Source: an uncultured Bacilli bacterium (lineage in GTDB: Bacteria; Bacillota_I; Bacilli_A; RF39; UBA660). From it: a DNA stretch of 64,000 nt. The stretch covers positions 658 to 64,657 of the forward strand of contig CAKPLP010000007.1 of assembly GCA_934167695.1 (NCBI GenBank), written 5' to 3'. Under the pieces are notes generated by a model. That model saw only the letters and a list, made by a program, of their open reading frames with translations. It was not told the origin of the DNA and made no database searches. A program made the position numbers and the translations under genes. Below are positions 18,617 through 63,565 of this stretch, piece by piece. Positions within the stretch are counted from its first letter, which is position 1; each line of letters starts with the position of its first letter.

Positions 18617-18670
18617 AAATGTGATTTTTAATCACGTTTTAATATTTATACAAAGAAGGAGTGTATTTTG

Positions 18671-21600
18671 ATGAAAAATGATAAGAAAAAAATAGTATCG
18701 ATTGCAGGAATTTTATTTTTAGTTATTTTTGTAGTAGCAATAAGTTATGCAGCTTTTTCATATTCAAAAATAGGACGAGAGAATAAAATAACAACAGGTA
18801 CTATTAGTATGAACTATACTGAAGCAAATAACGGTCTTACAATAAATGAGGCCGTACCAACAACGGATGAAGAAGGAAAGATCCTTATTAGTCCTGGACA
18901 AGTATTTGACTTTACAGTAAGTATAGATATAGTAGGAGATTTCCAAGTTAGTTATGAGGTAGTAGCAGAAAAACAAGCATCATCAACTTTAGATGAAAAG
19001 TACGTAAAACTATACTTAGAAAGAGGCCTAGATGGTACAAACTATAGTGAAATAATGGAACCAAGTATATATGTAGGAATAGAAAAAGCAAGTGAGTTCG
19101 GAGCACCAACTGGTTCAATGATAATGGATACAGGTACAGTATCAAGTTCAACATTATATTATTATAGATTAAGGATGTGGCTAGACGAAAGCTATGAGTT
19201 AACATCAGAAGCAAAGAGCTTTACAGTTAAAGTAAATGTATATGGTACAACAGAAAAATATAAATTAGATAATGAAGGATTTGCTTGTACATTTAGTGAT
19301 AATGATACTTTATCTGTAGGTAATAAGAGTACTGTTGATTTAATATGTACAGATCAAACATCAGGTGTAGAGAAAAAACAACTTGCAATTTCAGACTTTG
19401 TAAATAGTGACTCAGAAGTAGGAGAGATAAAAGAAATAAGTAATCCAATAAAAATTAATGGAGGATATAAATATACCTTAACATTACAAGGAAAGAAAGC
19501 CGGCGAATTTAAATTAACATTGCCAGAAGGTAAGATAAGCGATAGATTAGGTAATAAAAATACAGAACAATCAAAAACATATAATGTAAGTAATACAATA
19601 TATAGAATAACTTATAAAATTGGTAAGAATGTTGAAACAATAGAAAAGGAATCTGATAGTTGTATAGTAAATGCAGATGGAAAGTGTGAAGTAACATTAC
19701 CATCTATTACTCCAAAAGCAGGATACACATCTTTAGGATGGAGTACAGAAGAAAATTCAGATACAGAAGGTTACAAAGAAAATACAAAATATGAAGTAAC
19801 AAGTAGTACAGTATTATATGCTCACGCTAAAGATATAACAGCACCAAAAGTAGTAATGGAAATAGAAGGCGATGAACAATATGATCAAAACAAAGAAGTA
19901 AAAGTAGACATAGTAGAAGAAGCAGGAGAAATAAGTGATGACGGTACTGTTGCATATGGATGGTCAACATCAAAAGATATAGAACCAACAACTTGGACAA
20001 CTGTAACATTTGCAGAAATGGAAAAAACAACAGGAAAATATACATTCAAAGCAACAGCAACAAACTTAACAGGAGAATATTACTTATTCGTAAAAGCAAA
20101 CTTAAAAGATAGTGTTGGTAACATTTCAAACGAAACAAAAATATCAACTAGTACATTTAAATTTGATAATGTAAAACCTATTTGTAAAATAACTGGAGAT
20201 AACACCATAATGGTAGAAGAAGCTAAAGAATTAACTTTAACTTGTACCGATGAAAACTCAAAAGTTATAGCAAAAGATTTAGATATAAGCAATATAGAAA
20301 TAAGTAATGATACAGGGAAAATATTATTAATCTCAGCAGCAACGAAAACCGAAAATGGTTATAAATATCAAATAAAACTAAAGGGATTAACAACAGGAAG
20401 TTTCAACGTAAGTTTAAAAGCAGGAATAATATCTGATAGCGCTGGAAATAAAAATGAAAAAGTAACAAGCGAGACAATAGAAGTAACAGGAAGAACCTAT
20501 ACAGCAACATACCAAAAGGGTAATAATATAGAGTCAATTAGTAGGGAAAGTGATACTTGTACAACTACTGGATCAAATACTAGTTGTGAAATAACTTTGC
20601 CTGAAATAGTAGCATCAGTAGGATATAGTCCTGCAGGATGGTATAATGAGGACAAGAGCAAACAAACAGCTCCAAATGCTAAATACACATTAACTAAAGA
20701 TGAAACATTAACAGCAGAAGCTGTAGTTAATAGTTATAAGGTAACTTATGACTATATGACAAACGGTGGAAGTGCTGTAAGTCAAAAAGAAGATAAAGTA
20801 AATTATAATAGTGCAGTAGACTTAAATGTAACAGCAACAAAAGATGGCTGGACATTTGTAGGATGGAATACAGACAAAGATGCAACAATAGGTCTAACAA
20901 GTCTAAAGATAGGTACAGAAGATGTAACCTTATATGCAATATTTAAAAAAGAAGTAACAGCAACATTTACTTATTATGATTCAGGACTAAAAAATGCAAC
21001 AACAAGTTGTGTAATGTACAATAATGAAACAGTATGTAATTACGAAATTCCAACAGTTGTAACATCAAGTGCTGGACCAAGTGAAACAGTATATAAAGGT
21101 GTTTCAACAAAAACATCAAGTACAGATTTAACTACAACATATAATAGTAATACAACAAAATACTATGCGGTATATGATGTTGTAAAAAGTGCAACATATT
21201 ATTATTACAATGGAACTACTCAAACAAGTACAACAGCAAGCGCTACAAGAACAGCATTAAGTGATGGAACAACATATAAAGTTACTGAAGGAAAAATAAC
21301 AATTCCAGAAGAAATAACAAAAAGCATAGGACCATCAAATGCAACATATAGTGGAATAGCAAGCTCAGTAAGTCAAACAACAAGTGCCGATAGTACAACA
21401 GCAAATAGTAAATACTATGCATACTATAGTGGAAAATGGAATATAAAATATGCCAAGGGTGCAGGAGTAAATACAATCGGATCAACAGGAACAACTTGTG
21501 ATAGTAATAAAGTTAGTAATGGAACAACATATCAAGAGACAAGTTGTGAAGTAACATTACCAGAAATAACAGCAGAATCAGGATACACAGTAACAGGATG

Positions 21601-24600
21601 GTACGAAGGATCAACAAAAGTAGGTAACGCAGGAGCAAAATACACAGTTAGTAAAGATGTAACATTAACGGCGCAAACAAATATAAATGCATATACAGTA
21701 ACTTATGACTATATGACAAACGGTGGAAGTGCTGTAAGTCAAAAAGAAGATAAAGTAAATTATAATAGTGCAGTAGACTTAAATGTAACAGCAACAAAAG
21801 ATGGCTGGACATTTGTAGGATGGAATACAGACAAAGATGCAACAATAGGTCTAACAAGTCTAAAGATAGGTACAGAAGATGTAACCTTATATGCAATATT
21901 TAAAAAAGAAGTAACAGCAACATTTACTTATTATGATTCAGGACTAAAAAATGCAACAACAAGTTGTGTAATGTACAATAATGAAACAGTATGTAATTAC
22001 GAAATTCCAACAGTTGTAACATCAAGTGCTGGACCAAGTGAAACAGTATATAAAGGTGTTTCAACAAAAACATCAAGTACAGATTTAACTACAACATATA
22101 ATAGTAATACAACAAAATACTATGCGGTATATGATGTTGTAAAAAGTGCAACATATTATTATTACAATGGAACTACTCAAACAAGTACAACAGCAAGCGC
22201 TACAAGAACAGCATTAAGTGATGGAACAACATATAAAGTTACTGAAGGAAAAATAACAATTCCAGAAGAAATAACAAAAAGCATAGGACCATCAAATGCA
22301 ACATATAGTGGAATAGCAAGCTCAGTAAGTCAAACAACAAGTGCCGATAGTACAACAGCAAATAGTAAATACTATGCATACTATAGTGGAAAATGGAATA
22401 TAAAATATGCCAAGGGTGCAGGAGTAAATACAATCGGATCAACAGGAACAACTTGTGATAGTAATAAAGTTAGTAATGGAACAACATATCAAGAGACAAG
22501 TTGTGAAGTAACATTACCAGAAATAACAGCAGAATCAGGATACACAGTAACAGGATGGTACGAAGGATCAACAAAAGTAGGTAACGCAGGAGCAAAATAC
22601 ACAGTTAGTAAAGATGTAACACTAACAGCGCAAACAAATATAAATGCATATACAGTAACTTATGACTATACAACAAATGGAGGAAATAGTGCAACAAAGA
22701 CAAGTGCAACAGTAAATTATAATAGTGCAATAGATCTAAGTGTAACAGCGACAAAAACAGGATATACATTTGTAGGATGGAATACAAATAAAGATGCAAC
22801 AACAGCACTAACAAGTTTAAAAATGGGGACAAGTAATATAACACTATATGCAATATTTAAAGATGCAACAGCACCAGTATGTAGTTTTGGAACAGCTCCA
22901 ACAATAAAATATGGATCAACAGGAACAATAACCTTAACTTGTACCGATAATGAACCTGGTATGAGTAGTCATACAATAGCTACAAGTGACTTAACGGTAT
23001 CAAATTCAAATGGTAGTATAACAGCAATAAGTGCACCAACAGCAGTAACAAAAGGATATACATATACAGTAACATTAAAAGGATTAACAGTAGGAACATT
23101 TACGGTAAGTTTAAATGAAAAAGTAATCAGTGATAAACTAGGAAATACAAATGTAAAGGCAACAAGCTCAAATGTAACAGTAGAAAAAATATCAGCAGTT
23201 AATCCAACGCTAACCGCATACACCGGTACATATGATGGGTCAAGTCATACAATCGAAGTAAGTGGAGGAAGTGGAGGTACTATTCAATATAGTACAGATA
23301 ACTCAACATGGTCTACAACAAAGCCTACAAGAACAAATGCCGGAACAACTACTGTATATGTTAGAGTTTTAGGTGATAGTAATCATAATACTACTTCATC
23401 AATTTCAGCAAATATAACAATTGCAAGAAAGTCAATAGAAGTTCCAACATGTACAGCAAAAACATATACAGGGGTAAGTCAAACTTTATTCAGTAGTGGT
23501 ACAGGATATACTGCAGGGGGAACAACAAGTGGAATAGATGCAGGAACATATACTGCAACAGCAACACCAACCGGAAATTACATGTGGAGTGATGGAACAA
23601 CAACTGCAAAGAATGTATCATGTAAAATAAATGCAAAAAGCGTAGCAGTAAGTTGGGGAACAACTACAACATTTACATATAGTGGAAGTGCTCAAGGACC
23701 AACAGTAAGTGCAGTAACAGGGGTAAGTGGAGAAACAGTAAACTTTACAAGAACAACAGCAACAAATGCCGGAAGTTATACATCAACAGCAAGCTGTAGT
23801 AGTGTAACAGGTGGAAGAGCAAAATGTGCAAATTATAGTTTAAGTGGTGCAACAAAGGCCTATACTATAAGTAAGAAAAGTATGACAAAACCAACAAGTC
23901 CAACAGCCAAGAACTATACAGGAAGCTCTCAAACAAGTGGAATAACATGTCCAACTGGAAGTACCGCAGGAGGAACAACAAGTGCAACAAATGCCGGAAC
24001 ATATAGTCAAACATGTACTCCAGATTCAAATCATATATGGAGTGATAATACAACCACTGCAGTATCAATATCATGGACAATAAATAAAGTAGCCGCAACA
24101 CTAACATGTAGTAATAAAACATATTCAGGAGTAAGTCAAACTGGATGTACATGTAGTGGTGGAACAATAGGTGGAACTTATTCAGGAATAGATGTAGGAA
24201 CATATACAGCAAGTTGTACAGCAGATTCAAATCATACATCACCAGCAAATAAAAGTTGGTCAGTATTAGCAAAAAGCGTAGCAGTAAGTTGGGGAACAAC
24301 TACAACATTTACATATAGTGGAAGTGCTCAAGGACCAACAGTAAGTGCAGTAACAGGGGTAAGTGGAGAAACAGTAAACTTTACAAGAACAACAGCAACA
24401 AATGCCGGAAGTTATACATCAACAGCAAGCTGTAGTAGTGTAACAGGTGGAAGAGCAAAATGTGCAAATTATAGTTTAAGTGGTGCAACAAAGGCCTATA
24501 CTATAAGTAAGAAAAGTATGACAAAACCAACAAGTCCAACAGCCAAGAACTATACAGGAAGCTCTCAAACAAGTGGAATAACATGTCCAACTGGAAGTAC

Positions 24601-25708
24601 CGCAGGAGGAACAACAAGTGCAACAAATGCCGGAACATATAGTCAAACGTGTACTCCAGATTCAAACCATATGTGGAGTGATAATACAACCGCTGCAGCA
24701 TCGATATCGTGGACAATAAATAAAATAGCAGCAGTTAATCCAACGCTAACCGCATACACTGGTACATATGATGGATCAAGTCATACAATCGGAGTAAGTG
24801 GAGGAAGTGGAGGTACTATCCAATATAGTACAAATAATTCTACATGGACTACTACAAAGCCTACAAGAACAGATGCAGGAACAACTACTGTATATGTTAG
24901 GGTTTTAGGTGATAGTAACCATAATACTACTTCAAGTATTAATGCAAAAATTACAATTAACAAAAAAACACCAACTGTTGTATTAACACCATCATCAGGA
25001 AAAGCCACAAAAGCTTCTTCACAAACAACATTTGAAGAACGAGCTGATGTAGCAGGTAAATTTTCAAATACAAGTGGAGCTGCAAGTATAGTATCTGTAG
25101 CACCAGCTACATATACAGATGTAGCTGCAAATACATCGCAAACAGTACATGTTGCAGGATTAGCAACTGGTACTGGTAATGTTGTAGTAACATTTACACC
25201 AACTAGTTCAAATTATGCAACTGTTACTAAAACATATTCGTTAACAAGTGATATTACTCTTCCAACATGGTCATTGGTAAGTGCAACAACTGAAACAATT
25301 TCAAAAACAGCAACTCCTCTTGAAACAATAACATTAAAAATAAAAGGAACTGATGATTCCGGTTCATCAACAAGTACACTAACAAATGATAATATTAAAG
25401 TTTACATAAACGGAAGTTTAGTAACGCCATCGAGCAAAGGTATATCAGCAACCGCAGGTGTAACAGGTGGTAAAGAGTATACAATATTAATAAGTGGTAT
25501 AAATTCAGCAGGTAGTATGACTGTTATGATTGACGCAGGTACATTAACAGATGCTGTTGGAAATGCAAGTGCCAAAGCATCAATAACAACAGGAATAACA
25601 ATTAGAAAATATACAGCATCTGAAGTAACATACAGTGGAACTTCAAGTGGAAGTAGTTGTACATCAGTACAATGTGCATTAGACGAAATTAGTAAAAAGG
25701 TAAGTTAG
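18671..25708 (+). CDS. Giant (2345 aa) secreted/cell-surface repeat protein
   Basis: N-terminal signal-anchor ending ISYAAFSYS. Next come a TasA-like module (GTISMNYTE...YYYRLRMWL), Ig-like modules ending ...D.(A/L)GN.N, GWxFVGWNT Listeria-Bacteroides-type repeats and many Yx(G)...NAGTY repeats. The C-terminal motif is VTYSGTSSGSSCTSVQCALDEI. No LPXTG. Confidence 0.85.
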   Translation: MKNDKKKIVSIAGILFLVIFVVAISYAAFSYSKIGRENKITTGTISMNYTEANNGLTINEAVPTTDEEGKILISPGQVFDFTVSIDIVGDFQVSYEVVAEKQASSTLDEKYVKLYLERGLDGTNYSEIMEPSIYVGIEKASEFGAPTGSMIMDTGTVSSSTLYYYRLRMWLDESYELTSEAKSFTVKVNVYGTTEKYKLDNEGFACTFSDNDTLSVGNKSTVDLICTDQTSGVEKKQLAISDFVNSDSEVGEIKEISNPIKINGGYKYTLTLQGKKAGEFKLTLPEGKISDRLGNKNTEQSKTYNVSNTIYRITYKIGKNVETIEKESDSCIVNADGKCEVTLPSITPKAGYTSLGWSTEENSDTEGYKENTKYEVTSSTVLYAHAKDITAPKVVMEIEGDEQYDQNKEVKVDIVEEAGEISDDGTVAYGWSTSKDIEPTTWTTVTFAEMEKTTGKYTFKATATNLTGEYYLFVKANLKDSVGNISNETKISTSTFKFDNVKPICKITGDNTIMVEEAKELTLTCTDENSKVIAKDLDISNIEISNDTGKILLISAATKTENGYKYQIKLKGLTTGSFNVSLKAGIISDSAGNKNEKVTSETIEVTGRTYTATYQKGNNIESISRESDTCTTTGSNTSCEITLPEIVASVGYSPAGWYNEDKSKQTAPNAKYTLTKDETLTAEAVVNSYKVTYDYMTNGGSAVSQKEDKVNYNSAVDLNVTATKDGWTFVGWNTDKDATIGLTSLKIGTEDVTLYAIFKKEVTATFTYYDSGLKNATTSCVMYNNETVCNYEIPTVVTSSAGPSETVYKGVSTKTSSTDLTTTYNSNTTKYYAVYDVVKSATYYYYNGTTQTSTTASATRTALSDGTTYKVTEGKITIPEEITKSIGPSNATYSGIASSVSQTTSADSTTANSKYYAYYSGKWNIKYAKGAGVNTIGSTGTTCDSNKVSNGTTYQETSCEVTLPEITAESGYTVTGWYEGSTKVGNAGAKYTVSKDVTLTAQTNINAYTVTYDYMTNGGSAVSQKEDKVNYNSAVDLNVTATKDGWTFVGWNTDKDATIGLTSLKIGTEDVTLYAIFKKEVTATFTYYDSGLKNATTSCVMYNNETVCNYEIPTVVTSSAGPSETVYKGVSTKTSSTDLTTTYNSNTTKYYAVYDVVKSATYYYYNGTTQTSTTASATRTALSDGTTYKVTEGKITIPEEITKSIGPSNATYSGIASSVSQTTSADSTTANSKYYAYYSGKWNIKYAKGAGVNTIGSTGTTCDSNKVSNGTTYQETSCEVTLPEITAESGYTVTGWYEGSTKVGNAGAKYTVSKDVTLTAQTNINAYTVTYDYTTNGGNSATKTSATVNYNSAIDLSVTATKTGYTFVGWNTNKDATTALTSLKMGTSNITLYAIFKDATAPVCSFGTAPTIKYGSTGTITLTCTDNEPGMSSHTIATSDLTVSNSNGSITAISAPTAVTKGYTYTVTLKGLTVGTFTVSLNEKVISDKLGNTNVKATSSNVTVEKISAVNPTLTAYTGTYDGSSHTIEVSGGSGGTIQYSTDNSTWSTTKPTRTNAGTTTVYVRVLGDSNHNTTSSISANITIARKSIEVPTCTAKTYTGVSQTLFSSGTGYTAGGTTSGIDAGTYTATATPTGNYMWSDGTTTAKNVSCKINAKSVAVSWGTTTTFTYSGSAQGPTVSAVTGVSGETVNFTRTTATNAGSYTSTASCSSVTGGRAKCANYSLSGATKAYTISKKSMTKPTSPTAKNYTGSSQTSGITCPTGSTAGGTTSATNAGTYSQTCTPDSNHIWSDNTTTAVSISWTINKVAATLTCSNKTYSGVSQTGCTCSGGTIGGTYSGIDVGTYTASCTADSNHTSPANKSWSVLAKSVAVSWGTTTTFTYSGSAQGPTVSAVTGVSGETVNFTRTTATNAGSYTSTASCSSVTGGRAKCANYSLSGATKAYTISKKSMTKPTSPTAKNYTGSSQTSGITCPTGSTAGGTTSATNAGTYSQTCTPDSNHMWSDNTTAAASISWTINKIAAVNPTLTAYTGTYDGSSHTIGVSGGSGGTIQYSTNNSTWTTTKPTRTDAGTTTVYVRVLGDSNHNTTSSINAKITINKKTPTVVLTPSSGKATKASSQTTFEERADVAGKFSNTSGAASIVSVAPATYTDVAANTSQTVHVAGLATGTGNVVVTFTPTSSNYATVTKTYSLTSDITLPTWSLVSATTETISKTATPLETITLKIKGTDDSGSSTSTLTNDNIKVYINGSLVTPSSKGISATAGVTGGKEYTILISGINSAGSMTVMIDAGTLTDAVGNASAKASITTGITIRKYTASEVTYSGTSSGSSCTSVQCALDEISKKVS
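20741..22654 (+). repeat. Near-identical tandem duplication, 2 x 957 bp (319 aa), plus a diverged partial third unit from 22655
   Basis: gtaacttatgactatatgac... recurs at 20741 and 21698 (offset 957). A diverged copy starts at 22655. The translated units are identical. Only a few differences were noticed, near the unit ends (acattaacggcg versus acactaacagcg). Confidence 0.9.
23636..24660 (+). repeat. Near-identical ~385-bp segment present twice, offset 636 bp
   Basis: aaaagcgtagcagtaagttgggg... appears at 23636 and 24272. The protein stretch KSVAVSWGTTTTFTYSGSAQGPTVSAV...NAGTYSQTCTPDSNH is repeated verbatim. Confidence 0.85.
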
Positions 25709-48313: not shown

Positions 48314-48721
48314 TTAGCATAAATCAACAAATACATCAGGATGACACTGTAATGCACTAACACAGTTTAAATCAATAGTGAAAAACTGTCTAGTAGCTGT
48401 ATAAGTATCATCACCATTATCAATTAATATTCTGCAAGTACAGCAGCAATTATCAACTTTTTCTGCTCTAAATACTGTTGAAGTAGCAGTTGTCTCATTA
48501 ATCGTATATTGTATATTCCAAAGTTCACCAGATTGACAATTATAAAAACTCAAAGGTCTAGTATTATAGCATTCACAACTTAAAGTAGGACCCAAGAAAG
48601 GTTTGTCACATCCTTCACTACAGCAAGTATCAGCATCCATATTTTGAAGATTTACAATTTCTCGTATTAATTCAGACAAACAACAACTTCTATCAGCATT
48701 ATTTTCATTTCCACAGCACAT
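48314..48721 (-). CDS. CotY/CotZ-family cysteine-rich spore coat/exosporium protein
   Basis: 135 aa and Cys-rich. CCSEGCDKPFLGPT, VFRAEKVDNCCCTCRIL and IDLNCVSALQC are colinear with Bacillus CotZ/CotY (CPTGC..., FFRVE..C..CATLSIL, EVDL.CFCAI.CL). SD AGGAGG. Confidence 0.75.
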   Translation of the reverse strand: MCCGNENNADRSCCLSELIREIVNLQNMDADTCCSEGCDKPFLGPTLSCECYNTRPLSFYNCQSGELWNIQYTINETTATSTVFRAEKVDNCCCTCRILIDNGDDTYTATRQFFTIDLNCVSALQCHPDVFVDLC

Positions 48722-48734
48722 ATTTAATTCCTCC

Positions 48735-49130
48735 TTAACAAATATTTTCTAAAGCAAGATCACTTAAGCAAGAAACTACACACATACATTTTAAATTAAC
48801 AGTAACAAAATTATTAGTAGCCGAATATGTTTGTGTAGTAGTATCAAATGCTAAAATTCTAAGCTTAGCACAGCAATCACATACATGTTCTACCCTAAAA
48901 ACACTACTAGTATTAGCAGTACCACCAGAAGTATAATTTACTGTAAATAAACTACCATTACATGTATATAAAGTTATTGGTCTAGTGTTATAGCAAGTGT
49001 TTATTTGAGTAGGCCCTAAGAATGGTTTATCACACCCCTCACTACAACAAGAGTCAACAGTTGAATTTTTTTGCAGTATTTCAATAACTTTTAGAATTTT
49101 AGCAACGCAGCAACTATCATTATTAACCAT
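48735..49130 (-). CDS. CotY/CotZ-family cysteine-rich spore coat/exosporium protein (tandem paralog)
   Basis: Same motifs (CCSEGCDKPFLGPT, VFRVEHVCDCCAKLRIL, VNLKCMCVVSCL). ATG 49130 is preferred because the GTG at 49139 lies inside the SD AGAGGTG. Confidence 0.75.
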   Translation of the reverse strand: MVNNDSCCVAKILKVIEILQKNSTVDSCCSEGCDKPFLGPTQINTCYNTRPITLYTCNGSLFTVNYTSGGTANTSSVFRVEHVCDCCAKLRILAFDTTTQTYSATNNFVTVNLKCMCVVSCLSDLALENIC

Positions 49131-49156
49131 TATATCCACCTCTTAACTTTCTAGTA

Positions 49157-49184
49157 TAATTTATGTTTATACCCCATTTTTAGT
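49157..49184 (-). promoter_or_regulatory. SigmaK-type (late mother-cell) promoter candidate for the cotY/Z-like pair
   Basis: The minus strand reads AC, 17 nt, CATAAATTA. This matches AC-N16/17-CATAnnnTA and lies ~27 nt upstream of the ATG. Confidence 0.5.
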
Positions 49185-49292
49185 GTAGGTATAATCCTAA
49201 TAAATAATATGTAAAAATATTAAATAGTTTACAATTAAACTTATTCCTTTAATATATAGTCCAAATAATTAGTTAATATTTTTGTAAGTATC

Positions 49293-49321
49293 TTGATACT
49301 GGCATTAAATTATTATATACT
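49293..49321 (+). promoter_or_regulatory. SigmaA-type promoter of leader/surface-protein gene A
   Basis: TTGATA, 17 nt, TATACT. The identical arrangement is conserved at 62425-62453. Confidence 0.55.
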
Positions 49322-49349
49322 TACTATAATATAATAATTAGGAGGAAGT

Positions 49350-49465
49350 ATGAGAGCGTCAATCAAATGTTCTAGTGGGGGGGGGGGGCACTTTACTAGA
49401 ACAATAAATATATTTAGAGATACATAACTTTTGTAGTATAGAAAGATATGAAAGGAGTGTATTAA
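49350..49465 (+). promoter_or_regulatory. Conserved 5' leader with a 25-codon mini-ORF (49350-49427), a G12 tract and a hairpin
   Basis: AGGAGG-aagt-ATG, encoding MRASIKCSSGGGGHFTRTINIFRDT*. Hairpin arms GTTCTAGT (49369-76) and ACTAGAAC (49395-402) enclose G12+CACTTT. Confidence 0.6.
49377..49388 (+). repeat. Homopolymeric G12 tract
   Basis: Counted directly: tctagt + 12 g + cac. This is very unusual in an AT-rich background. Confidence 0.95.
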
Positions 49466-50395
49466 ATGAAAAAAATAAAGAAGAAATATATACTTATAAT
49501 TATAGGAATACTAATAGGATTAGTAATTTCAGTAGGTGGGGTATATGCTGCAGTAACCATTACAGGAAGTAATGTAACATATTCAAATTCTTCCTCAGGT
49601 CTAACTTCAACGACAGTACAAGGAGCAATCGATGAATTAAATAATAAAACAGATATAAGGAAAATGTCCAATTTTGTTTCAGTATATAAATATAGCACAG
49701 CAACATCAACAAAATGTATCACAGGAGAAGAAGATACATGTGTAAAATCAACTTGCCACAAAACTAAAACAAGTGGAAGTTGTCCCGCGGGAACAATAAT
49801 AAAATATAAAGTAAATGATGCTACAGTAGTAACATTCCATGTAATGTTTGACAATGGAAGTACCTTAACAATGCAAAGTCAGAAAAATATCTCCTACAAC
49901 TCGGCATGGTATGGTACTAGTACAAGTGATACTAATACATCAGGCCCCATGTCCTTATTACCATTGTTAGAAAGTATAACTGCAGGCTGGAGTAATGTCA
50001 ATAATCAAACATATACAATGGGTACAACAGTATTTAAAACAAATGCATACACCGGATGTAGTGACTATAACAGTTGTACAACCAATACTTATACTTTAGC
50101 ATCAAGAACATCAAAAGCTCGTATGATAACAGTACAAGAAGCAGCTGCCTTAGGATGTTTAGGTATTTCTACGCCAAAATCATGCCCAATCTGGATGTAT
50201 AATTATTTAAATAACTCAACAAGTTATGGTGGCACAATAAATGATAGTACAGCATCATCTGGTTACTGGACAATGTCCGCTTCTACCAATTCTTTAGTTG
50301 GTGCCTTTTTCATATATTATTATGGCCAGTTGCGATATGATAATTATGTTTGCAGAACACTTGGAGCTAGAGCAGTAGTAGTAGTTTCAAAATAA
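49466..50395 (+). CDS. Secreted Cys-rich lectin-like surface protein, paralog A
   Basis: Signal ending SVGGVYAAVTITG, motif SNVTYSNSSSGLTSTTVQGAIDELN, a Cys-rich core, and C-terminal ...GYWTMS...GARAVVVVSK. Paralog of 62594-63565 and of the C-terminal half of 54436-55773. Confidence 0.75.
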   Translation: MKKIKKKYILIIIGILIGLVISVGGVYAAVTITGSNVTYSNSSSGLTSTTVQGAIDELNNKTDIRKMSNFVSVYKYSTATSTKCITGEEDTCVKSTCHKTKTSGSCPAGTIIKYKVNDATVVTFHVMFDNGSTLTMQSQKNISYNSAWYGTSTSDTNTSGPMSLLPLLESITAGWSNVNNQTYTMGTTVFKTNAYTGCSDYNSCTTNTYTLASRTSKARMITVQEAAALGCLGISTPKSCPIWMYNYLNNSTSYGGTINDSTASSGYWTMSASTNSLVGAFFIYYYGQLRYDNYVCRTLGARAVVVVSK

Positions 50396-50436: not shown

Positions 50437-50477
50437 ATAGCAGTTTTTTGAAAAAAAGAGGGGGAAAAATAATAAGT

Positions 50478-51554
50478 ATGAAAAATAAAGAACTATTTAT
50501 AGATGGCTACAAACTACCACAACCACTATCAAAGGATGAAACAAACAGACTACTAAAAGAAGTAAGTGAAGGATCAACAACTGCTAGACAATTACTAGCA
50601 GTTCATAATATTCGCTTTGTTATAAAAGAAGTATTAAATACATTCGCTACTGTTGAATATGATAAAGATGAATTAGTATCTATAGGAAATATTGGATTGT
50701 TAAAGGCTATTGATAATTATGATTTAACAAAAGGAGTTAATTTTCTTACCTATACCGTTAGATGTATCGATAATGAAATATTAATGTTTTTAAGAAAATT
50801 AACAAAAGCAAGAAATACAGATAGTTTAGAAAAAGTAATAGGCAATAACGAGGATGGCAGTGAAACAAAATTAAAAGATATATTAAGTACTGATAATGAC
50901 TTATTAGAAAATAAAGAAAAAATTGAAACCTATAAAGCAATTAGAGAAATAGTAAAAAACTTACCAAAAACAGAAAAAGAAATTATAATGTTATATTTTG
51001 GGTTCTATGATGATCAGGTATATACACAAAAGGAAATTGCAGAAGCATTACATCTTTCACAATCATATGTATCAAGAGTTATAAAACGTGCAGTAGAACA
51101 AATCGGTATGGAATTACAATCTCGTGAATTTATAGAACTATCTAAAAAGAAAAAGAAACAACCAAAAGGAAAAAATAATGGTATACAATCAATTTATGAA
51201 TATTTTGAAGAATATACAAAAGAACAAATAAATGATATGTTAGCAAAATTATCATCAGAAGAAATTGAACTAGTTAAATTAAGATATGGTGAAGATCTAG
51301 AAAAGCCAGTACGATTAAAATTAAAAGAAGAATACAAAAATAAATTCTATGGTTATTTACTTCCAAGAATGAAAAAAATGTTAGCAAATCCTGATGTGGA
51401 ATTTAAAAGAGTACATAGAGATCCTAAAAATAAAAAAAATAATTTATCAAGAAAAAAACCAATATCACAAATTTTAGAATTAAATAATAACCAAAACGAG
51501 TTTTTAACTAATGAGAAAAATAATCAATATCAATTAGTAAAACATACTAAATAA
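50478..51554 (+). CDS. Sigma-70 family sigma factor (SigE/SigK-like core) with a ~135-aa C-terminal extension
   Basis: LPQPLSKDETNRLL..., SIGNIGLLKAIDNYD, TYTVRCIDNEILMFLRK (region 2) and TQKEIAEALHLSQSYVSRVIKRA (region 4.2). Then a K-rich linker and SIYEYFEEYTKEQINDMLAKLSSEEIELVKLRYGEDL. Confidence 0.8.
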   Translation: MKNKELFIDGYKLPQPLSKDETNRLLKEVSEGSTTARQLLAVHNIRFVIKEVLNTFATVEYDKDELVSIGNIGLLKAIDNYDLTKGVNFLTYTVRCIDNEILMFLRKLTKARNTDSLEKVIGNNEDGSETKLKDILSTDNDLLENKEKIETYKAIREIVKNLPKTEKEIIMLYFGFYDDQVYTQKEIAEALHLSQSYVSRVIKRAVEQIGMELQSREFIELSKKKKKQPKGKNNGIQSIYEYFEEYTKEQINDMLAKLSSEEIELVKLRYGEDLEKPVRLKLKEEYKNKFYGYLLPRMKKMLANPDVEFKRVHRDPKNKKNNLSRKKPISQILELNNNQNEFLTNEKNNQYQLVKHTK

Positions 51555-59517: not shown

Positions 59518-59546
59518 TTGACAAAAAAGCTTATTTATGATAAAAT
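59518..59546 (+). promoter_or_regulatory. Near-consensus sigmaA promoter with extended -10 driving the large ncRNA
   Basis: TTGACA (59518-23), 17 nt ending TGa, TAAAAT (59541-46). Confidence 0.65.
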
Positions 59547-59551
59547 GAGCA

Positions 59552-60139
59552 GTAATTGATGGCACATTATTCTAGTCAATTACTTTATTATGAGGACGGG
59601 GATAAATTACCGTTAAAGAGCACATCTATGAAACCTTTGGTGTTTGCTTTAAATGCCCAATTTGGGGTGGATGCTGAAGATGAGAATAATGGGCGAGGTG
59701 TAATGGCATATACCAGCCGACCCACTATTCGCGGAGACCTATTTGCGTGGTAAGCCTATACGGTTTACTGACGGACTTATTACGGAATAGGACTAAACCT
59801 ACTTTGTGGCGAAAGTTATGAGTAGCGTAGCTTGTCTTGAGTGAGAGCTTTGGGATTAGCAATAATTAGATAATATAAAATAGGCCAATTTTATATTATC
59901 TACTATGAAATTACTCTTGCAAAAAAGAATTAATAATAAAGTGTTGTTGAGGAAAGCTCCTAGGGTGTTATCGAATATGGGATTGCAGTGGGCACTAAGT
60001 GGTAATCAAGTCGTATAGAACTTCTATACTTATATTTTTAAAGGGGAACCGCACTACTGGTAACGGTATGTAAATATAAGGGAAATCCTACTTGACCTAA
60101 GGCCCAAAGTTAACCATATAAGAAGCCATCATTTTTTTT
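59552..60139 (+). ncRNA. Large (~580 nt) structured non-coding RNA; candidate OLE-class RNA
   Basis: 705-bp gap with markedly higher GC than its flanks. The only ORF has no SD. Multiple perfect helices are present (59551-59/59576-84, 59845-51/59953-59, 59867-81/59888-902, 60013-19/60023-29). A possible closing helix is TGATGGC 59557-63 / GCCATCA 60125-31. A small 4-TM protein gene follows directly. Confidence 0.6.
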
Positions 60140-60159
60140 GACTAAAAAAAGAGGATTTT

Positions 60160-60753
60160 ATGAAAAGAAAAAGGGAAAATATTCTAAAAAACTTACAAGT
60201 TCAAACAAAGAAAAAAGAAAAAATAAAAAAAGAAAAAGTAAATATTAAATGGATTATCGAAATATGTATAACTTCATTTTTAATATCAATATTTATGTCA
60301 TTACTAAGTGAAACAACTCTAAATAATGTAAATCTATTAATTTCACTAATTATTACATTAGTATTCATTTTTATAGGAATACTATTCGATATAATAGGTG
60401 TTGCAGTAACTAGTAGTGATGAAAAAGTATTTCACTCTATGAGTTCTAGAAAAGTAAAAGGTTCAAAAATCGCTGTTAAGTTAAAGAAAAATGCCGAAAA
60501 AACATCATCATTTTGTTGTGATGTAATAGGAGATATATGCGGAGTATTATCAGGAACAAGTGGAGTAGTAATTGCAACAAACATTGTTAAATTAACAAAT
60601 TATAATAGTTTGATTGTAACATTACTAACAACGGCTACCATCGCTTCCTTAACCATTACAGGAAAAGCAATCGGTAAAAGTTTTGCAATAAATAAAAGTA
60701 ATATAATTCTTTATGAATTTTCAAAAGTAGTATCATATTTTTATAAAGGTTAA
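60160..60753 (+). CDS. Small 4-TM membrane protein, candidate OapA (OLE-associated protein A)
   Basis: 197 aa (~21-22 kDa). Basic N-terminus, four predicted TM helices, and a repeated D(I/V)IG motif in TM2/TM3 (FDIIGVAV, CDVIGDICG). Located 20 nt after the ncRNA. Confidence 0.5.
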   Translation: MKRKRENILKNLQVQTKKKEKIKKEKVNIKWIIEICITSFLISIFMSLLSETTLNNVNLLISLIITLVFIFIGILFDIIGVAVTSSDEKVFHSMSSRKVKGSKIAVKLKKNAEKTSSFCCDVIGDICGVLSGTSGVVIATNIVKLTNYNSLIVTLLTTATIASLTITGKAIGKSFAINKSNIILYEFSKVVSYFYKG

Positions 60754-60776
60754 AATATAGATTCAGGGGGTTACTT

Positions 60777-61733
60777 ATGAAAATTAGATTTAATAAGATA
60801 AAACTATTAACAACATTAATAGGAGAAATAGTATTAGTTACTACTTTTCCAAGTAAAATAGGCAAAGAAACACTTTCATATCAAGTTGGAGAACATAATA
60901 TAATAGAAACAAATAAAAATATTACTTCATTAAAACCAAAAAGTTTTAAAAAAGATTTAAATTCTCCACCGGGATATAAAGTAGTAGATTACGATTATGA
61001 AAAAAATATAGCATATTATATTGAAAATATTTTATATAAAAATACTCAAATTATAGATACTGAAAGTATTAATGAATTTGGAACACCCAAAACACAAAAT
61101 CAGAATGATAAAAATAACATCTATGCCCCTCATAAACATCAAATAGTAGAATATAATGTAAAATTCGAGTTACATACAAAAAAGCATCAGTTAAAAGTAT
61201 TAACAGCACCAGAAGGTTATGAAATCACAAAATATAATTATGAAAAAAACAATGAAATTGTTTCAGAAATAATATTATATGAAAATACTGTTCCAGTAGA
61301 AAAAGATAAGGAAAATGATTTTGGAAAACCTCTAGTAGAAATTCCAAAAAATAATGACTATATAGAAGTTAAAGATCAAAAGTTAGCAGTAATCAATATA
61401 AATAAAAATCTCATCTTCAAAAATAGAAAGAAAAAATTAACAACCCCACCAAATTATAAAATAATAGATTATGATTATAATAGAACATTCGACAAAGAGG
61501 TAGAAACAATTTTATACGAAAATTCACAAAGAATTAACAAAAATATTTTAGAGCAAACCTTTAAGCAAACTGATGAAGAGTACTATGTAGAAATAGAAAA
61601 AACATCATCACCGAAGTTCAAAAAATTAAAATATATAGAAAATCCAATAGGTTATAACTTAATAAGTTACAGTACGGATTATAATAAATATTATACATAT
61701 AACACAAAATTATATGTAAAAAAGGGGCATTAA
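60777..61733 (+). CDS. Protein with four ~80-aa internal repeats (hypothetical)
   Basis: Recurring P(P/E)GY(K/E)(V/I).(D/K)Y(D/N)YEKN...E.ILYENT motif, four times. Weak hydrophobic N-terminus. Confidence 0.55.
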   Translation: MKIRFNKIKLLTTLIGEIVLVTTFPSKIGKETLSYQVGEHNIIETNKNITSLKPKSFKKDLNSPPGYKVVDYDYEKNIAYYIENILYKNTQIIDTESINEFGTPKTQNQNDKNNIYAPHKHQIVEYNVKFELHTKKHQLKVLTAPEGYEITKYNYEKNNEIVSEIILYENTVPVEKDKENDFGKPLVEIPKNNDYIEVKDQKLAVININKNLIFKNRKKKLTTPPNYKIIDYDYNRTFDKEVETILYENSQRINKNILEQTFKQTDEEYYVEIEKTSSPKFKKLKYIENPIGYNLISYSTDYNKYYTYNTKLYVKKGH

Positions 61734-61734
61734 C

Positions 61735-62385
61735 ATGACAAATAAACATCATCTACTTGGTGAAGGTAGAGAAGGAAAAGTTTATCTACTAAACGATGAG
61801 GCAATTAAGATATATAATTATACTTGTGATAAAAGAAGACTAAATAAAGAAGATGCTACAAAATTAAGCAAAATTAAAACAAAAAGAATTTTAACACCTA
61901 CGAGAATTTTTTTAGATAAGGAAAAAGAAATAAAAGGATACTCTACAAAATATATTGAAAATTTAAATATAAATAATTTATTAATATTAAAAAGAGAACT
62001 TTTATTAAAAGAATTATCCATTTTAAAAGAAGATTTATTATTGTTAAGTGATAATAATATTTTAGTAGAAGACTTTAATAAAGATAATACTTGTTTTAAT
62101 AATGGTATTTATCTAATAGATCCCGGAAGTTATGAATGTGATTATGATTTAGATAAAAATCAGATTTTGGGTAAAAATATAGAAATAATGAATGAATTTT
62201 TATTAGATATTATGGCATGGTGTAGTCACGAATTAACAAAAAATACTTTTACTGATAGAAAATTAACACAGGAAATATTTCATGATTATATTGAAAAGAA
62301 ATATCCTGACTTAATAGAATATTTAAAAGAAAATGTAAAAGAAAATAATAATATATCGGAATTTATATATAAGAAAACTAAGTAG
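61735..62385 (+). CDS. Minimal protein-kinase-like protein (Bud32/RIO-size)
   Basis: G-loop LLGEGREGKVY, AIKIY lysine, VEDFNKDN catalytic-loop-like segment, and LIDPGS (DFG-like). 216 aa. Confidence 0.55.
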   Translation: MTNKHHLLGEGREGKVYLLNDEAIKIYNYTCDKRRLNKEDATKLSKIKTKRILTPTRIFLDKEKEIKGYSTKYIENLNINNLLILKRELLLKELSILKEDLLLLSDNNILVEDFNKDNTCFNNGIYLIDPGSYECDYDLDKNQILGKNIEIMNEFLLDIMAWCSHELTKNTFTDRKLTQEIFHDYIEKKYPDLIEYLKENVKENNNISEFIYKKTK

Positions 62386-62424: not shown

Positions 62425-62453
62425 TTGATACTGCTATTAAAATATTGTATACT
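62425..62453 (+). promoter_or_regulatory. SigmaA-type promoter of leader/surface-protein gene B
   Basis: TTGATA, 17 nt, TATACT. Homology to locus A starts exactly at this promoter. Confidence 0.55.
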
Positions 62454-62479
62454 TTAGTAGATTAATAATAGGAGGAAGT

Positions 62480-62593
62480 ATGAGAGTGTCAATCAAATGT
62501 TCTATTGGGGGGGGGTCACTTTAGTAGAACAATAAATATATTTAGAGATACATAACTTTTGTAGTATAGAAAAATATGAAAGGAGTGTATTAA
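62480..62593 (+). promoter_or_regulatory. Conserved 5' leader, copy B, with a 14-codon mini-ORF (62480-62524), a G9 tract and a hairpin
   Basis: AGGAGG-aagt-ATG, encoding MRVSIKCSIGGGSL*. Arms GTTCTATT (62499-506) and AGTAGAAC (62523-530) enclose G9+TCACTTT. Confidence 0.6.
62507..62515 (+). repeat. Homopolymeric G9 tract
   Basis: Counted directly: tctatt + 9 g + tcac. Confidence 0.95.
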
Positions 62594-63565
62594 ATGAATA
62601 AAAAAATTATATTTATAGTTCTAGTAATACTAATAGGACTAGTAATTTCAGTAGGAGGAGTATATGCTGCAGTAACCATTACAGGAAGCAATATAACTTA
62701 CTCCAATTCATCTTCAGGATTATCCTCAACGACAGTACAAGCAGCAATCGACGAATTAAATACAAAGACGGATATAAGAAAAATGGGAAATTTCATAGGA
62801 GTGTATAAATACAGTACGGCAACATCAACTAAGTGTATCACAGGAGAAGAATCAACTTGTGTAAAATCTACTTGCTATAAAACTAAAACAAGCGGTAGTT
62901 GTCCAGCGGGAACAATCGTAAAATATAAAGTAAATGATGCAACAGTGGTAAATTTTCATGTAATGTATGATAATGGATCTACTATGACTATGCAAAGCCA
63001 AAAAAATACAATATACAATATACCTTGGATAAGTAAAGAAGATTATACAACAGCAAATACTAATGGAACAAGTTGTAGTTATGACTCTTGCAGTGATGAA
63101 GGACCACTAACGATACTAAAAGCATTAGAATCAGTAACTGCAGGGTGGAGCAATGTCAACAATCAAACATATACAATAGGTACAACAGTATTTAAAACTA
63201 ATGCATACACTAGTTGTAATAGTTACAATTCATGTAGTGGCAACGCCTATACCTTAGCATCAAGAACCGCAAAAGCCAGAATAATAACATTACAGGAAGT
63301 TGCAAACTTGGGTTGCTCATCGATATCTGCATGCCCAATTTGGATGTATAATTACCTCTTTAATTCAGTAGAATCTGGAGGAACAATAAATGATACTGCT
63401 TATGGACCAAATTGGAGTAACAATGCCGGTTATTGGACAATAACAGGAACAAGCAATACACCTCATGGTGCATGGCGTGTATCAGCCGGAGATGAACCAG
63501 TTACAATTAGAGCTACTGCTGCTCCATATTATGGTGCCAGAGCAGTTGTCGTAGTATCAAAATAG
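62594..63565 (+). CDS. Secreted Cys-rich lectin-like surface protein, paralog B
   Basis: The N-terminal ~130 aa are closely similar (most positions identical by eye) to 49466-50395. The middle is divergent. The C-terminus reads GYWTITGTSNTPHGAWRVSAGDEPVTIRATAAPYYGARAVVVVSK. Confidence 0.75.
   Translation: MNKKIIFIVLVILIGLVISVGGVYAAVTITGSNITYSNSSSGLSSTTVQAAIDELNTKTDIRKMGNFIGVYKYSTATSTKCITGEESTCVKSTCYKTKTSGSCPAGTIVKYKVNDATVVNFHVMYDNGSTMTMQSQKNTIYNIPWISKEDYTTANTNGTSCSYDSCSDEGPLTILKALESVTAGWSNVNNQTYTIGTTVFKTNAYTSCNSYNSCSGNAYTLASRTAKARIITLQEVANLGCSSISACPIWMYNYLFNSVESGGTINDTAYGPNWSNNAGYWTITGTSNTPHGAWRVSAGDEPVTIRATAAPYYGARAVVVVSK

Follow-up and report, generated by a model that had tools for sequence, protein, structure and literature searches.

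The window analysed here is a 64-kb stretch of DNA with a G+C content of 27% that carries two copies of a leader, each placed upstream of a gene of one and the same protein family. The first leader (49293–49472) and its gene comprise the following features.

49293–49321, forward strand: sigma-70-type promoter TTGATA-17-TATACT, copy 1 (−35 hexamer 49293–49298, −10 hexamer 49316–49321)
49340–49345, forward strand: strong Shine-Dalgarno sequence (SD) AGGAGG of the upstream open reading frame (uORF); three relatives (L083, L086 and L092) use this SD-ATG as the true start of the gene
49350–49427, forward strand: uORF of 25 codons encoding MRASIKCSSGGGGHFTRTINIFRDT and a stop (ATG at 49350, TAA at 49425–49427); this is the long frame, given by the present G12 state
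49369–49402, forward strand: hairpin P1 around the tract, 8 bp formed by GTTCTAGT (49369–49376) and ACTAGAAC (49395–49402)
49377–49388, forward strand: uninterrupted G12 homopolymer, the proposed slipped-strand switch (G11 in the relative L082)
49397–49407, forward strand: short-frame stops, TAG at 49397–49399 (for G10/G13) and TAA at 49405–49407 (for G11/G14)
49411–49472, forward strand: hairpin P2; its 5' arm (AUUUAGAGAUACAUAACUUUUGU) covers the final codons and the stop of the uORF in the long frame, its 3' arm the main SD, spacer and AUG
49454–49468, forward strand: SD and start codon of the main gene (GGAG at 49454–49457, 8-nt spacing, ATG at 49466–49468)
49466–50395, forward strand: family gene copy 1, 309 aa, consisting of a hydrophobic segment at the N-terminus (anchor or signal sequence) followed by an extracellular domain

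The promoter, the mini-ORF initiated from AGGAGG-ATG, the G12 run and its flanking 8-bp hairpin were all found at the coordinates assigned to them in a first-pass annotation of this DNA. That annotation had also argued that a G12 run is improbable by chance in so AT-rich a genome, and arithmetic from run counts bears this out, with about 1e-5 occurrences expected per 64 kb from base composition. Runs of at least six G or C occur only twice in the window, the G12 at 49377–49388 and a G9 at 62507–62515, and both of these are located in the two family leaders. GGG, which had been called a rare codon, is indeed the rarest glycine codon here, accounting for 4.3% of glycine codons. The G12 run lies 55 nt 3' of TATACT, within the predicted translated uORF and not between the −35 and −10 hexamers, and it is outside the regulated ORF, as the stop at 49425–49427 and a separate SD and ATG stand in between. 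A terminator scan of 49140–49520 returned no terminator-like site, and neither window hairpin is followed by a T run. Neither at the gathering threshold nor at E up to 1 did an Rfam search match the leader, the exception being a single hit on the opposite strand that is no better than chance, and exact-pattern scans for the leader matched nothing in the genome contigs or in the first metagenome scan; its close relatives were obtained via protein homologs.

The second copy of the leader (62425–62593), which had been missed in the first-pass annotation, is approximately 95% identical to the first from the −35 hexamer to the start codon. Its features, with those of its gene, are the following.

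62425–62453, forward strand: promoter TTGATA-17-TATACT, copy 2
62480–62524, forward strand: uORF copy 2, in a short frame, encoding MRVSIKCSIGGGSL and a stop
62507–62515, forward strand: G9 tract, copy 2
62539–62600, forward strand: hairpin P2, copy 2, predicted to sequester the SD and AUG of the gene at 62594–63565
62594–63565, forward strand: family gene copy 2, 323 aa, with 66% protein identity to copy 1

Sequence conservation between the two leaders starts exactly at the −35 hexamer, and the leaders are better conserved than the genes that follow them (approximately 95% leader identity vs 66% amino-acid identity). As the mini-ORF of copy 2 is read in a different frame past the tract, the conserved feature is not a single peptide.

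The protein encoded by copy 1 has no match in Pfam or NCBIfam. A homology search yielded 461 homologs, nearly all from gut metagenomes and metagenome-assembled genomes (MAGs) labelled uncultured Bacilli, Erysipelotrichaceae, Tenericutes or Clostridia; 125 family loci are found in species-representative genomes, and one MAG holds more than 25 copies. All family members feature a hydrophobic anchor or signal segment at the N-terminus, and larger paralogs contain BspA-type leucine-rich repeats of the LRR adhesin kind. For the AlphaFold model (pLDDT 84.7) the best structural match is part of the Thomasclavelia ramosa IgA peptidase (E 1.3e-3), followed by weaker matches to C-type-lectin-like folds. 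Based on the N-terminal anchor, the BspA repeats of the larger paralogs and the likeness to the IgA peptidase fold, surface proteins is a reasonable description of the predicted family products, in keeping with the label originally given to the downstream gene. We also considered a link to the adjacent SigK/SigE-like sigma factor gene and rejected it, as this gene is not beside family genes in other genomes.

The consequences of tract length for the uORF can be read directly from the sequence. In the window, the two short frames stop 11 or 19 nt past the tract, at the TAG and TAA listed above, so that the earlier stops anticipated for the other two frames are present, and the long frame continues for 39 nt into the 5' arm of P2. 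The long frame corresponds to G9, G12 or G15 in copy 1 and to G8 or G11 in copy 2.

Folding of the window leader predicts the two hairpins P1 and P2. In P1, the stem is extended by G:U and G:C pairs between the tract and CACUUU; in relatives only the 6-bp core GTTCTA/TAGAAC is kept. A G-C to U-G difference in P1 between copies 1 and 2 looked compensatory but was rejected as such, since other relatives have G.G or A.C at this position. P2 has a predicted stability of −12.4 kcal/mol with a z-score of −4.2, none of 200 shuffled sequences being equally stable, and the fold of the whole leader has a z-score of −4.65. The first-pass annotation had proposed that CACUUU acts as an anti-SD by pairing with GGAGUG of the main gene. 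Folding does not agree with this proposal: CACUUU is paired with the G tract in P1, and the main-gene SD is paired with AGAGAUACAU. The idea is thus replaced by a different predicted SD-sequestering hairpin, P2, which has support from covariation. Across six relatives, 96% of the alignment cells in P2 are paired, compared to 39–59% in controls in which the partner strand was slid, and compensatory change is seen at four pairs, all of them in the inner helix and representing about one or two events between two lineages. Helices 1 and 2, which hold the SD and AUG, are invariant, and covariation therefore neither supports nor contradicts these two helices.

To model accessibility, a ribosome footprint was imposed on the leader up to 12 nt past the stop of each frame. 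SD and AUG are unpaired with a probability of 0.31 in the free RNA, 0.31 and 0.42 with a ribosome in the two short frames, and 0.89 with a ribosome in the long frame. Footprint folding gave a similar outcome for copy 2 and for the relatives L085 and L088.

On balance, we favour an interpretation in which the G12 run is a hypermutable contingency tract that turns the surface-protein gene ON and OFF by way of slipped-strand mispairing, the uORF frame and P2. Slipped-strand mispairing at replication would change the length of the tract, and this length would set the reading frame that the well-initiated 25-codon uORF takes past the tract. A ribosome translating the long frame would enter the 5' arm of P2, melt the hairpin and expose the SD and AUG of the main gene (ON), and in the short frames P2 would stay closed and main-gene translation would be low (OFF or low). 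From the frame that each allele uses and the SD/AUG accessibility computed per frame, copy 1 (G12) is predicted to be ON, copy 2 (G9, in the shortest frame) to be OFF, and a G11 allele to be OFF or intermediate. Since the SD and AUG are part of the hairpin P2 and no T run follows it, control is predicted to be exerted at translation initiation and not at transcription termination. Beyond the sequence architecture we infer every mechanistic step, including frequent and reversible slippage, a limit set on translation by P2, and the relief of this limit by translation of the uORF. The main gene possesses a good SD and ATG of its own, and P2 is moderately stable, so its expression might not depend on the uORF.

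We surveyed the occurrence of such tracts across the family in the window together with 98 further loci (L001–L098). This set contains 68 G runs of at least seven nucleotides, every one of them G on the strand of the family gene and none on the opposite strand; a family ORF was called at 57 of the 68, and the remaining 11 are mostly found at locus ends. Looking from the side of the genes, a tract of G7–G12 is present at 52 of the 96 family genes with a complete upstream region, and in some family members it is absent or decayed. G-quadruplex formation was considered for these tracts and rejected, because tracts of G8–G9 cannot form one.

The tracts are found in four layouts. In the first (layout A), seen in 32 promoters, the tract is placed in the promoter spacer between a TTGnnn −35 and a TAnnnT −10 hexamer and abuts the −10 hexamer or falls within 6 nt of it; the loci include L003–L012, L018, L027, L035, L041, L046, L052, L057 and L098. 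The spacers measure 17 nt (n=2), 18 nt (n=2), 19 nt (n=27) or 22 nt (n=1), and tract length offsets flank length (8+G11, 9+G10, 10+G9); tract-free family promoters have 17-nt spacers. Irrespective of flank length, the spacer is thus 19 nt in 27 of the 32 promoters, a preference that is left unexplained by a simple random-walk switch.

In layout B, a promoter is followed by an SD-ATG leader ORF containing the tract, a hairpin with a T run, and the SD-ATG of the family gene. The promoter is canonical where readable (e.g., TTGAAA-17-TATACT in L068), and a fold-based scan located the hairpin and a T4–T6 run 32 to 70 nt past the tract in 18 of 18 leaders. A stricter terminator scan found none in L014 or L068, whose stems are AT-rich or mismatched, which accounts for the negative result. 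We also tried a unified model in which the layout B tracts, too, are in a promoter spacer (TTAACT, 8+n nt, TAAAAT). It was rejected: upstream, these leaders already possess an SD-ATG and a canonical TTGnnn-17-TATACT promoter, transcription from the alternative position would run directly into the terminator, and the in-frame relatives use this uORF start as the true start of their gene.

Layout C, a leader ORF with an SD hairpin, is that of the window and is common to L085, L088–L091, L093–L095 and L084. In layout D the tract is in the 5' coding region (L083, L086 and L092). The promoter, the AGGAGG-ATG and the tract of these three loci are as in the window, and a 61-nt segment is missing from them, such that the long frame past the tract, GGGHFSRTINIF-KKNYKILIG..., continues into the family protein. 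Their assembled G9 gives a 14-aa peptide, and G8 or G11 would give the full protein of 325–344 aa. Correspondingly, the N-terminal extension of the in-frame relatives has a homolog in HFTRTINIF, the post-tract peptide of the window uORF.

The arrangement of frames described for the window recurs in the leader-ORF relatives, in which two frames stop 3 to 19 nt past the tract (with the exception of L064) and the third runs for 32 to 113 nt and ends within or past the terminator hairpin. This pattern is seen in at least four or five sequence-distinct sub-lineages; singly it is not rare, with a probability of 0.1 to 0.3 per leader in a shuffle test, and the leaders share ancestry. Most assembled alleles use a short frame, the long frame being found in L049, L068, L075 and L102, and in OOIH01 one of nine paralogs is in the long frame. 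Among the loci with decayed tracts, L062 (G6) is in the long frame by manual reading, whereas a short frame is the fixed state of L069 (GGGGGGAGGG). Decay has turned the tract of L084 into GAGGGGTGGT; its uORF is held in the long frame with its stop just before the SD, and P2 contains a mismatch; judged from its sequence, L084 looks like a locked-ON derivative.

Taken together, the sequences support in essence the original suggestion that changes in tract length shift the mini-ORF stop and may thereby alter leader structure and translation. The tract is family-wide, the leader-ORF relatives other than L064 combine two short frames with one long frame, the long frame of close relatives is the N-terminus of the gene itself, and one assembly has G11 in place of G12. 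As at contingency loci, a homopolymer of at least about seven nucleotides is located in a promoter, leader or 5' ORF, and the target is a multigene surface-protein family. Frames, SD accessibility, in-frame relatives and promoter spacers jointly predict that a change of one unit in the tract would alter the expression state. The sole property common to the four layouts is a mutable homopolymer, and this is the strongest argument that mutability itself is selected. We therefore suggest, more tentatively than for the window tract alone, that poly-G may serve as a portable switch within one family, acting on promoter spacing, on a leader peptide with a terminator, on unmasking of the ribosome-binding site or on the coding frame, with the window representing a heritable SD-unmasking form of attenuation.

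A difference in tract length between otherwise identical assemblies was seen at one locus. L082, from a different ENA assembly and encoding an identical protein, is free of mismatches to the window across an alignment of 3035 nt, the single gap being the difference between G11 and G12; only 16 nt separate its tract from the contig end, a region more prone to error, and the G11 may thus be an assembly error. Within a single genome, the tracts of paralogs range from G8 to G12, with differences of one or two Gs. Comparison of strains gave a divided answer: the tract differs between assemblies at this one locus (G11 vs G12), but at five other loci independent assemblies have the same consensus length (G12, n=4; G9, n=3; G10, G9 and G9, n=2 each). 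Consensus assemblies report the majority state and may pool paralogs where the conserved leader exceeds the assembly k-mer; in one rabbit MAG all 21 of 21 tracts are G9, possibly through such pooling. Contig ends and N-gaps at tracts were rejected as evidence for heterogeneity, because conserved multicopy leaders break assemblies anyway and such breaks are uninformative.

Stable consensus lengths also speak for the alternative that the tract is a relic. According to this explanation, the ancestors were in-frame genes, a 61-nt segment brought in the stop, the new SD and the new ATG, and tract and uORF have persisted with no effect on expression. It accommodates the separate SD (GGAG, 8-nt spacing) and ATG of the main gene, the straight read-through of the three loci that have no such segment, and the missing or decayed tracts of some family members. 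An unselected G9–G12 run at 27% G+C should, on the other hand, be interrupted fast, and the runs are intact in W1, W2, L085, L088–L091 and L093–L095. [quoted passage not shown] We consequently regard a relic as unlikely.

Slippage at the level of RNA, in which RNA polymerase slippage or ribosomal frameshifting would mix the frames and yield a fixed expression level in place of a heritable ON/OFF state, would equally be compatible with consensus lengths that are stable across samples. It would further make sense of the observation that all three in-frame loci carry G9 and are out of frame, provided that slippage during expression restores the frame, and productive slippage at G tracts has been debated for the pili of Bifidobacterium (PMC9187656). 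The same study, though, attributed the effect to replication slippage (PMC9187656), differences exist at the DNA level (G11 vs G12, and G8–G12 among paralogs), and the promoter-spacer layout can act at the DNA level only. As a replacement for DNA slippage we hold RNA-level slippage to be improbable; it could be additional to it.

The G run might instead be a site in the mRNA leader to which a C/U-rich small RNA or a protein binds, with run length tuning the interaction, as described for RepG and tlpB in H. pylori (PMC8295292). The tract is always G on the sense strand and is presented in the loop or upper stem of P1, in line with this possibility, but the promoter-spacer tracts are 5' of the predicted transcription start and hence not in the RNA, the window contains neither a C run of at least six nucleotides nor a candidate small RNA, and the frame architecture and the in-frame relatives would be left unexplained, making such a site very unlikely. 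The second suggestion of the first-pass annotation, that pausing of the ribosome at three or four GGG codons acts as a sensor, is the least credible of all: GGG is the rarest glycine codon and the tract is within the window uORF, but tract lengths in paralogs and orthologs differ by non-multiples of three (G9+T, G10, G11), promoter-spacer tracts are untranslated, the window leader holds no terminator/antiterminator pair of the kind found in amino-acid attenuation leaders, and the downstream genes encode surface proteins and are unrelated to glycine metabolism.

Returning to the favoured contingency tract, its components can be compared to known systems. Repeat-driven phase variation is textbook knowledge for Neisseria, Haemophilus, Campylobacter and Mycoplasma; to our knowledge it is barely documented in spore-forming gut Firmicutes, and we know of no report from this uncultured lineage. 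Promoter-spacer, intragenic and leader-peptide-plus-terminator forms of it are already known. What is new here is the lineage and the protein family, the presence of four layouts in one family, and the SD-unmasking form of the window, no description of which, as a repeat-driven translational attenuation, was found in the literature searched.

Homopolymer switches in the promoter spacer operate at porA and opc of Neisseria meningitidis and at vlp of Mycoplasma hyorhinis. The layout A relatives resemble these in carrying the tract between −35 and −10, and the target is a multigene surface-protein family here as in the vlp system, whereas the window tract lies past the −10 hexamer, inside the uORF. 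Intragenic G tracts act as ON/OFF switches in Neisseria pilC and in Campylobacter contingency genes. In the window, the stop and the second SD/ATG cut the tract off from the gene, and a frame change therefore cannot act directly on the protein. A gut commensal, Bifidobacterium breve, has an intragenic G-tract ON/OFF switch for its sortase-dependent pili, with a 5' G tract and slippage by ±1 (PMC9187656), and this is the state of L083, L086 and L092.

The step proposed to follow the frame change in the window resembles translational attenuation. In ermC and cat, the position of a ribosome in the leader ORF opens a hairpin that masks the downstream SD, and the trigger is drug-induced stalling. 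A ribosome in the leader ORF would likewise unmask the SD in the window; the trigger in ermC and cat is physiological, and the one proposed here is a heritable frame change. With tlpB of H. pylori, where a variable-length G repeat in the leader sets expression and the trans-acting C/U-rich small RNA RepG is required (PMC8295292), the window shares a G repeat of variable length in the mRNA leader; no uORF frame logic is involved in that system, and its small RNA has no candidate counterpart in the window.

The nearest precedent is found in Streptococcus gallolyticus pil1 and pil3, where out-of-frame numbers of GCAGA repeats lengthen a leader peptide and the ribosome then destabilises a premature terminator (PMC3894217). 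The first-pass annotation had been aware of no described mechanism for this protein family, a statement that holds for the family, which is uncharacterised, but not for the principle, as phase variation by repeats in a leader peptide is proven for pil1 (PMC3894217). The pil loci and the window have in common a simple sequence repeat in a short leader ORF 3' of the promoter (PMC3894217), and a logic, proposed in the case of the window, by which a longer leader peptide brings the ribosome to a downstream hairpin and allows expression of surface-structure genes. Most alleles are in the short, low-expression state in both, low expression being a prediction in our case. Terminator-type relatives (e.g., L014, L068, L064 and L102) reproduce the pil architecture, including the intrinsic terminator between leader ORF and gene that the window lacks; accordingly, the long frame of these relatives ends within or past a terminator and that of the window in the 5' arm of P2. 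The repeat is a G homopolymer here and a series of GCAGA units there, and the switch would serve one family, with up to dozens of paralogs in each genome, here and two pilus operons there.

If the proposed switch operates, slippage would vary up to dozens of surface proteins in each genome, which would matter for escape from immunity (IgA), resistance to phages and the persistence of strains in the human gut, and metagenome assemblies would systematically hide the underlying heterogeneity in tract length. The four layouts within one family form a natural series for the re-use of a mutable tract across expression levels, in which the window form would carry leader-peptide control, known from the single example of S. 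gallolyticus pil1, over from transcription to translation.

Among the relatives of the surface-protein family that carry the poly-G tract between the -35 and -10 elements (L003-L057 and L098), the promoter spacer is 19 nt long in 27 of 32 promoters irrespective of flank length, the flank and tract summing to this value as 8 nt plus G11, 9 nt plus G10 or 10 nt plus G9. Family promoters devoid of a tract have a spacer of 17 nt. A simple switch model offers no explanation for the prevalence of the 19-nt spacer. Family genes also occur in tandem, with up to four copies spaced about 1.05-1.1 kb apart (L011, L027, L035, L041, L046 and L052). Each gene of these arrays displays a terminator, TTGCAA, G9 and TATAAT, followed by a 7-bp hairpin (CTTAGAT/ATCTAAG) that holds the SD in its loop and has its 3' end at the ATG.

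In the terminator-type leaders (L014, L017, L031, L038 and L043), a CCC is conserved about 17 nt 3' of the tract in AT-rich surroundings and could pair with the G run; this CCC is missing in other sub-lineages.

At the strain level, comparison with L093 and L095 revealed a deletion in L094 (1590-2196) and L096 (1043-1649). Its endpoints are two AGTAGGAGGAA repeats, one in the SD region of the small upstream ORF and the other in the SVGGT codons, and the sequence lost between them comprises, for the family gene located after P0044, the entire leader, the tract and the codons of the signal anchor.

Several assemblies break at or near tracts. A run of N (scaffold gap) in L002 (2941-2951) lies exactly where the promoter and G tract of one family gene should be, and contigs end 16-110 nt from the tract in L011, L035, L064, L079, L080, L082 and L091. 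One protein was called by gene callers as either 347 aa (P0016/P0125) or 320 aa (P0122/P0123), and the contigs concerned measure 49369 and 49370 nt. Since the 347-aa version extends across the promoter G10 (L098:416-446), the 1-nt difference in contig size may be the tract.

Two further features of the window are as follows.

48314-49139, minus strand: two CotZ-like spore-coat genes in tandem, divergent from family copy 1
18668-25708, plus strand: very large ORF of 2346 aa with a TTG start

The CotZ-like pair, together with SpoIIR and SpoIID on related contigs, shows that the host is a spore-former. Family copy 1 is located immediately 5' of a SigK/SigE-like sigma factor gene (50448-51554), whose product scores under the SigK and SigE cut-offs and is extended at its C terminus by about 140 aa; in other genomes, family genes lack this sigma factor gene as a neighbour. 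An OLE (ornate large extremophilic) RNA is present in full length at 59543-60145 (377 bits), immediately 5' of three ORFs for small or membrane proteins (60160-62385), which are followed by family copy 2.
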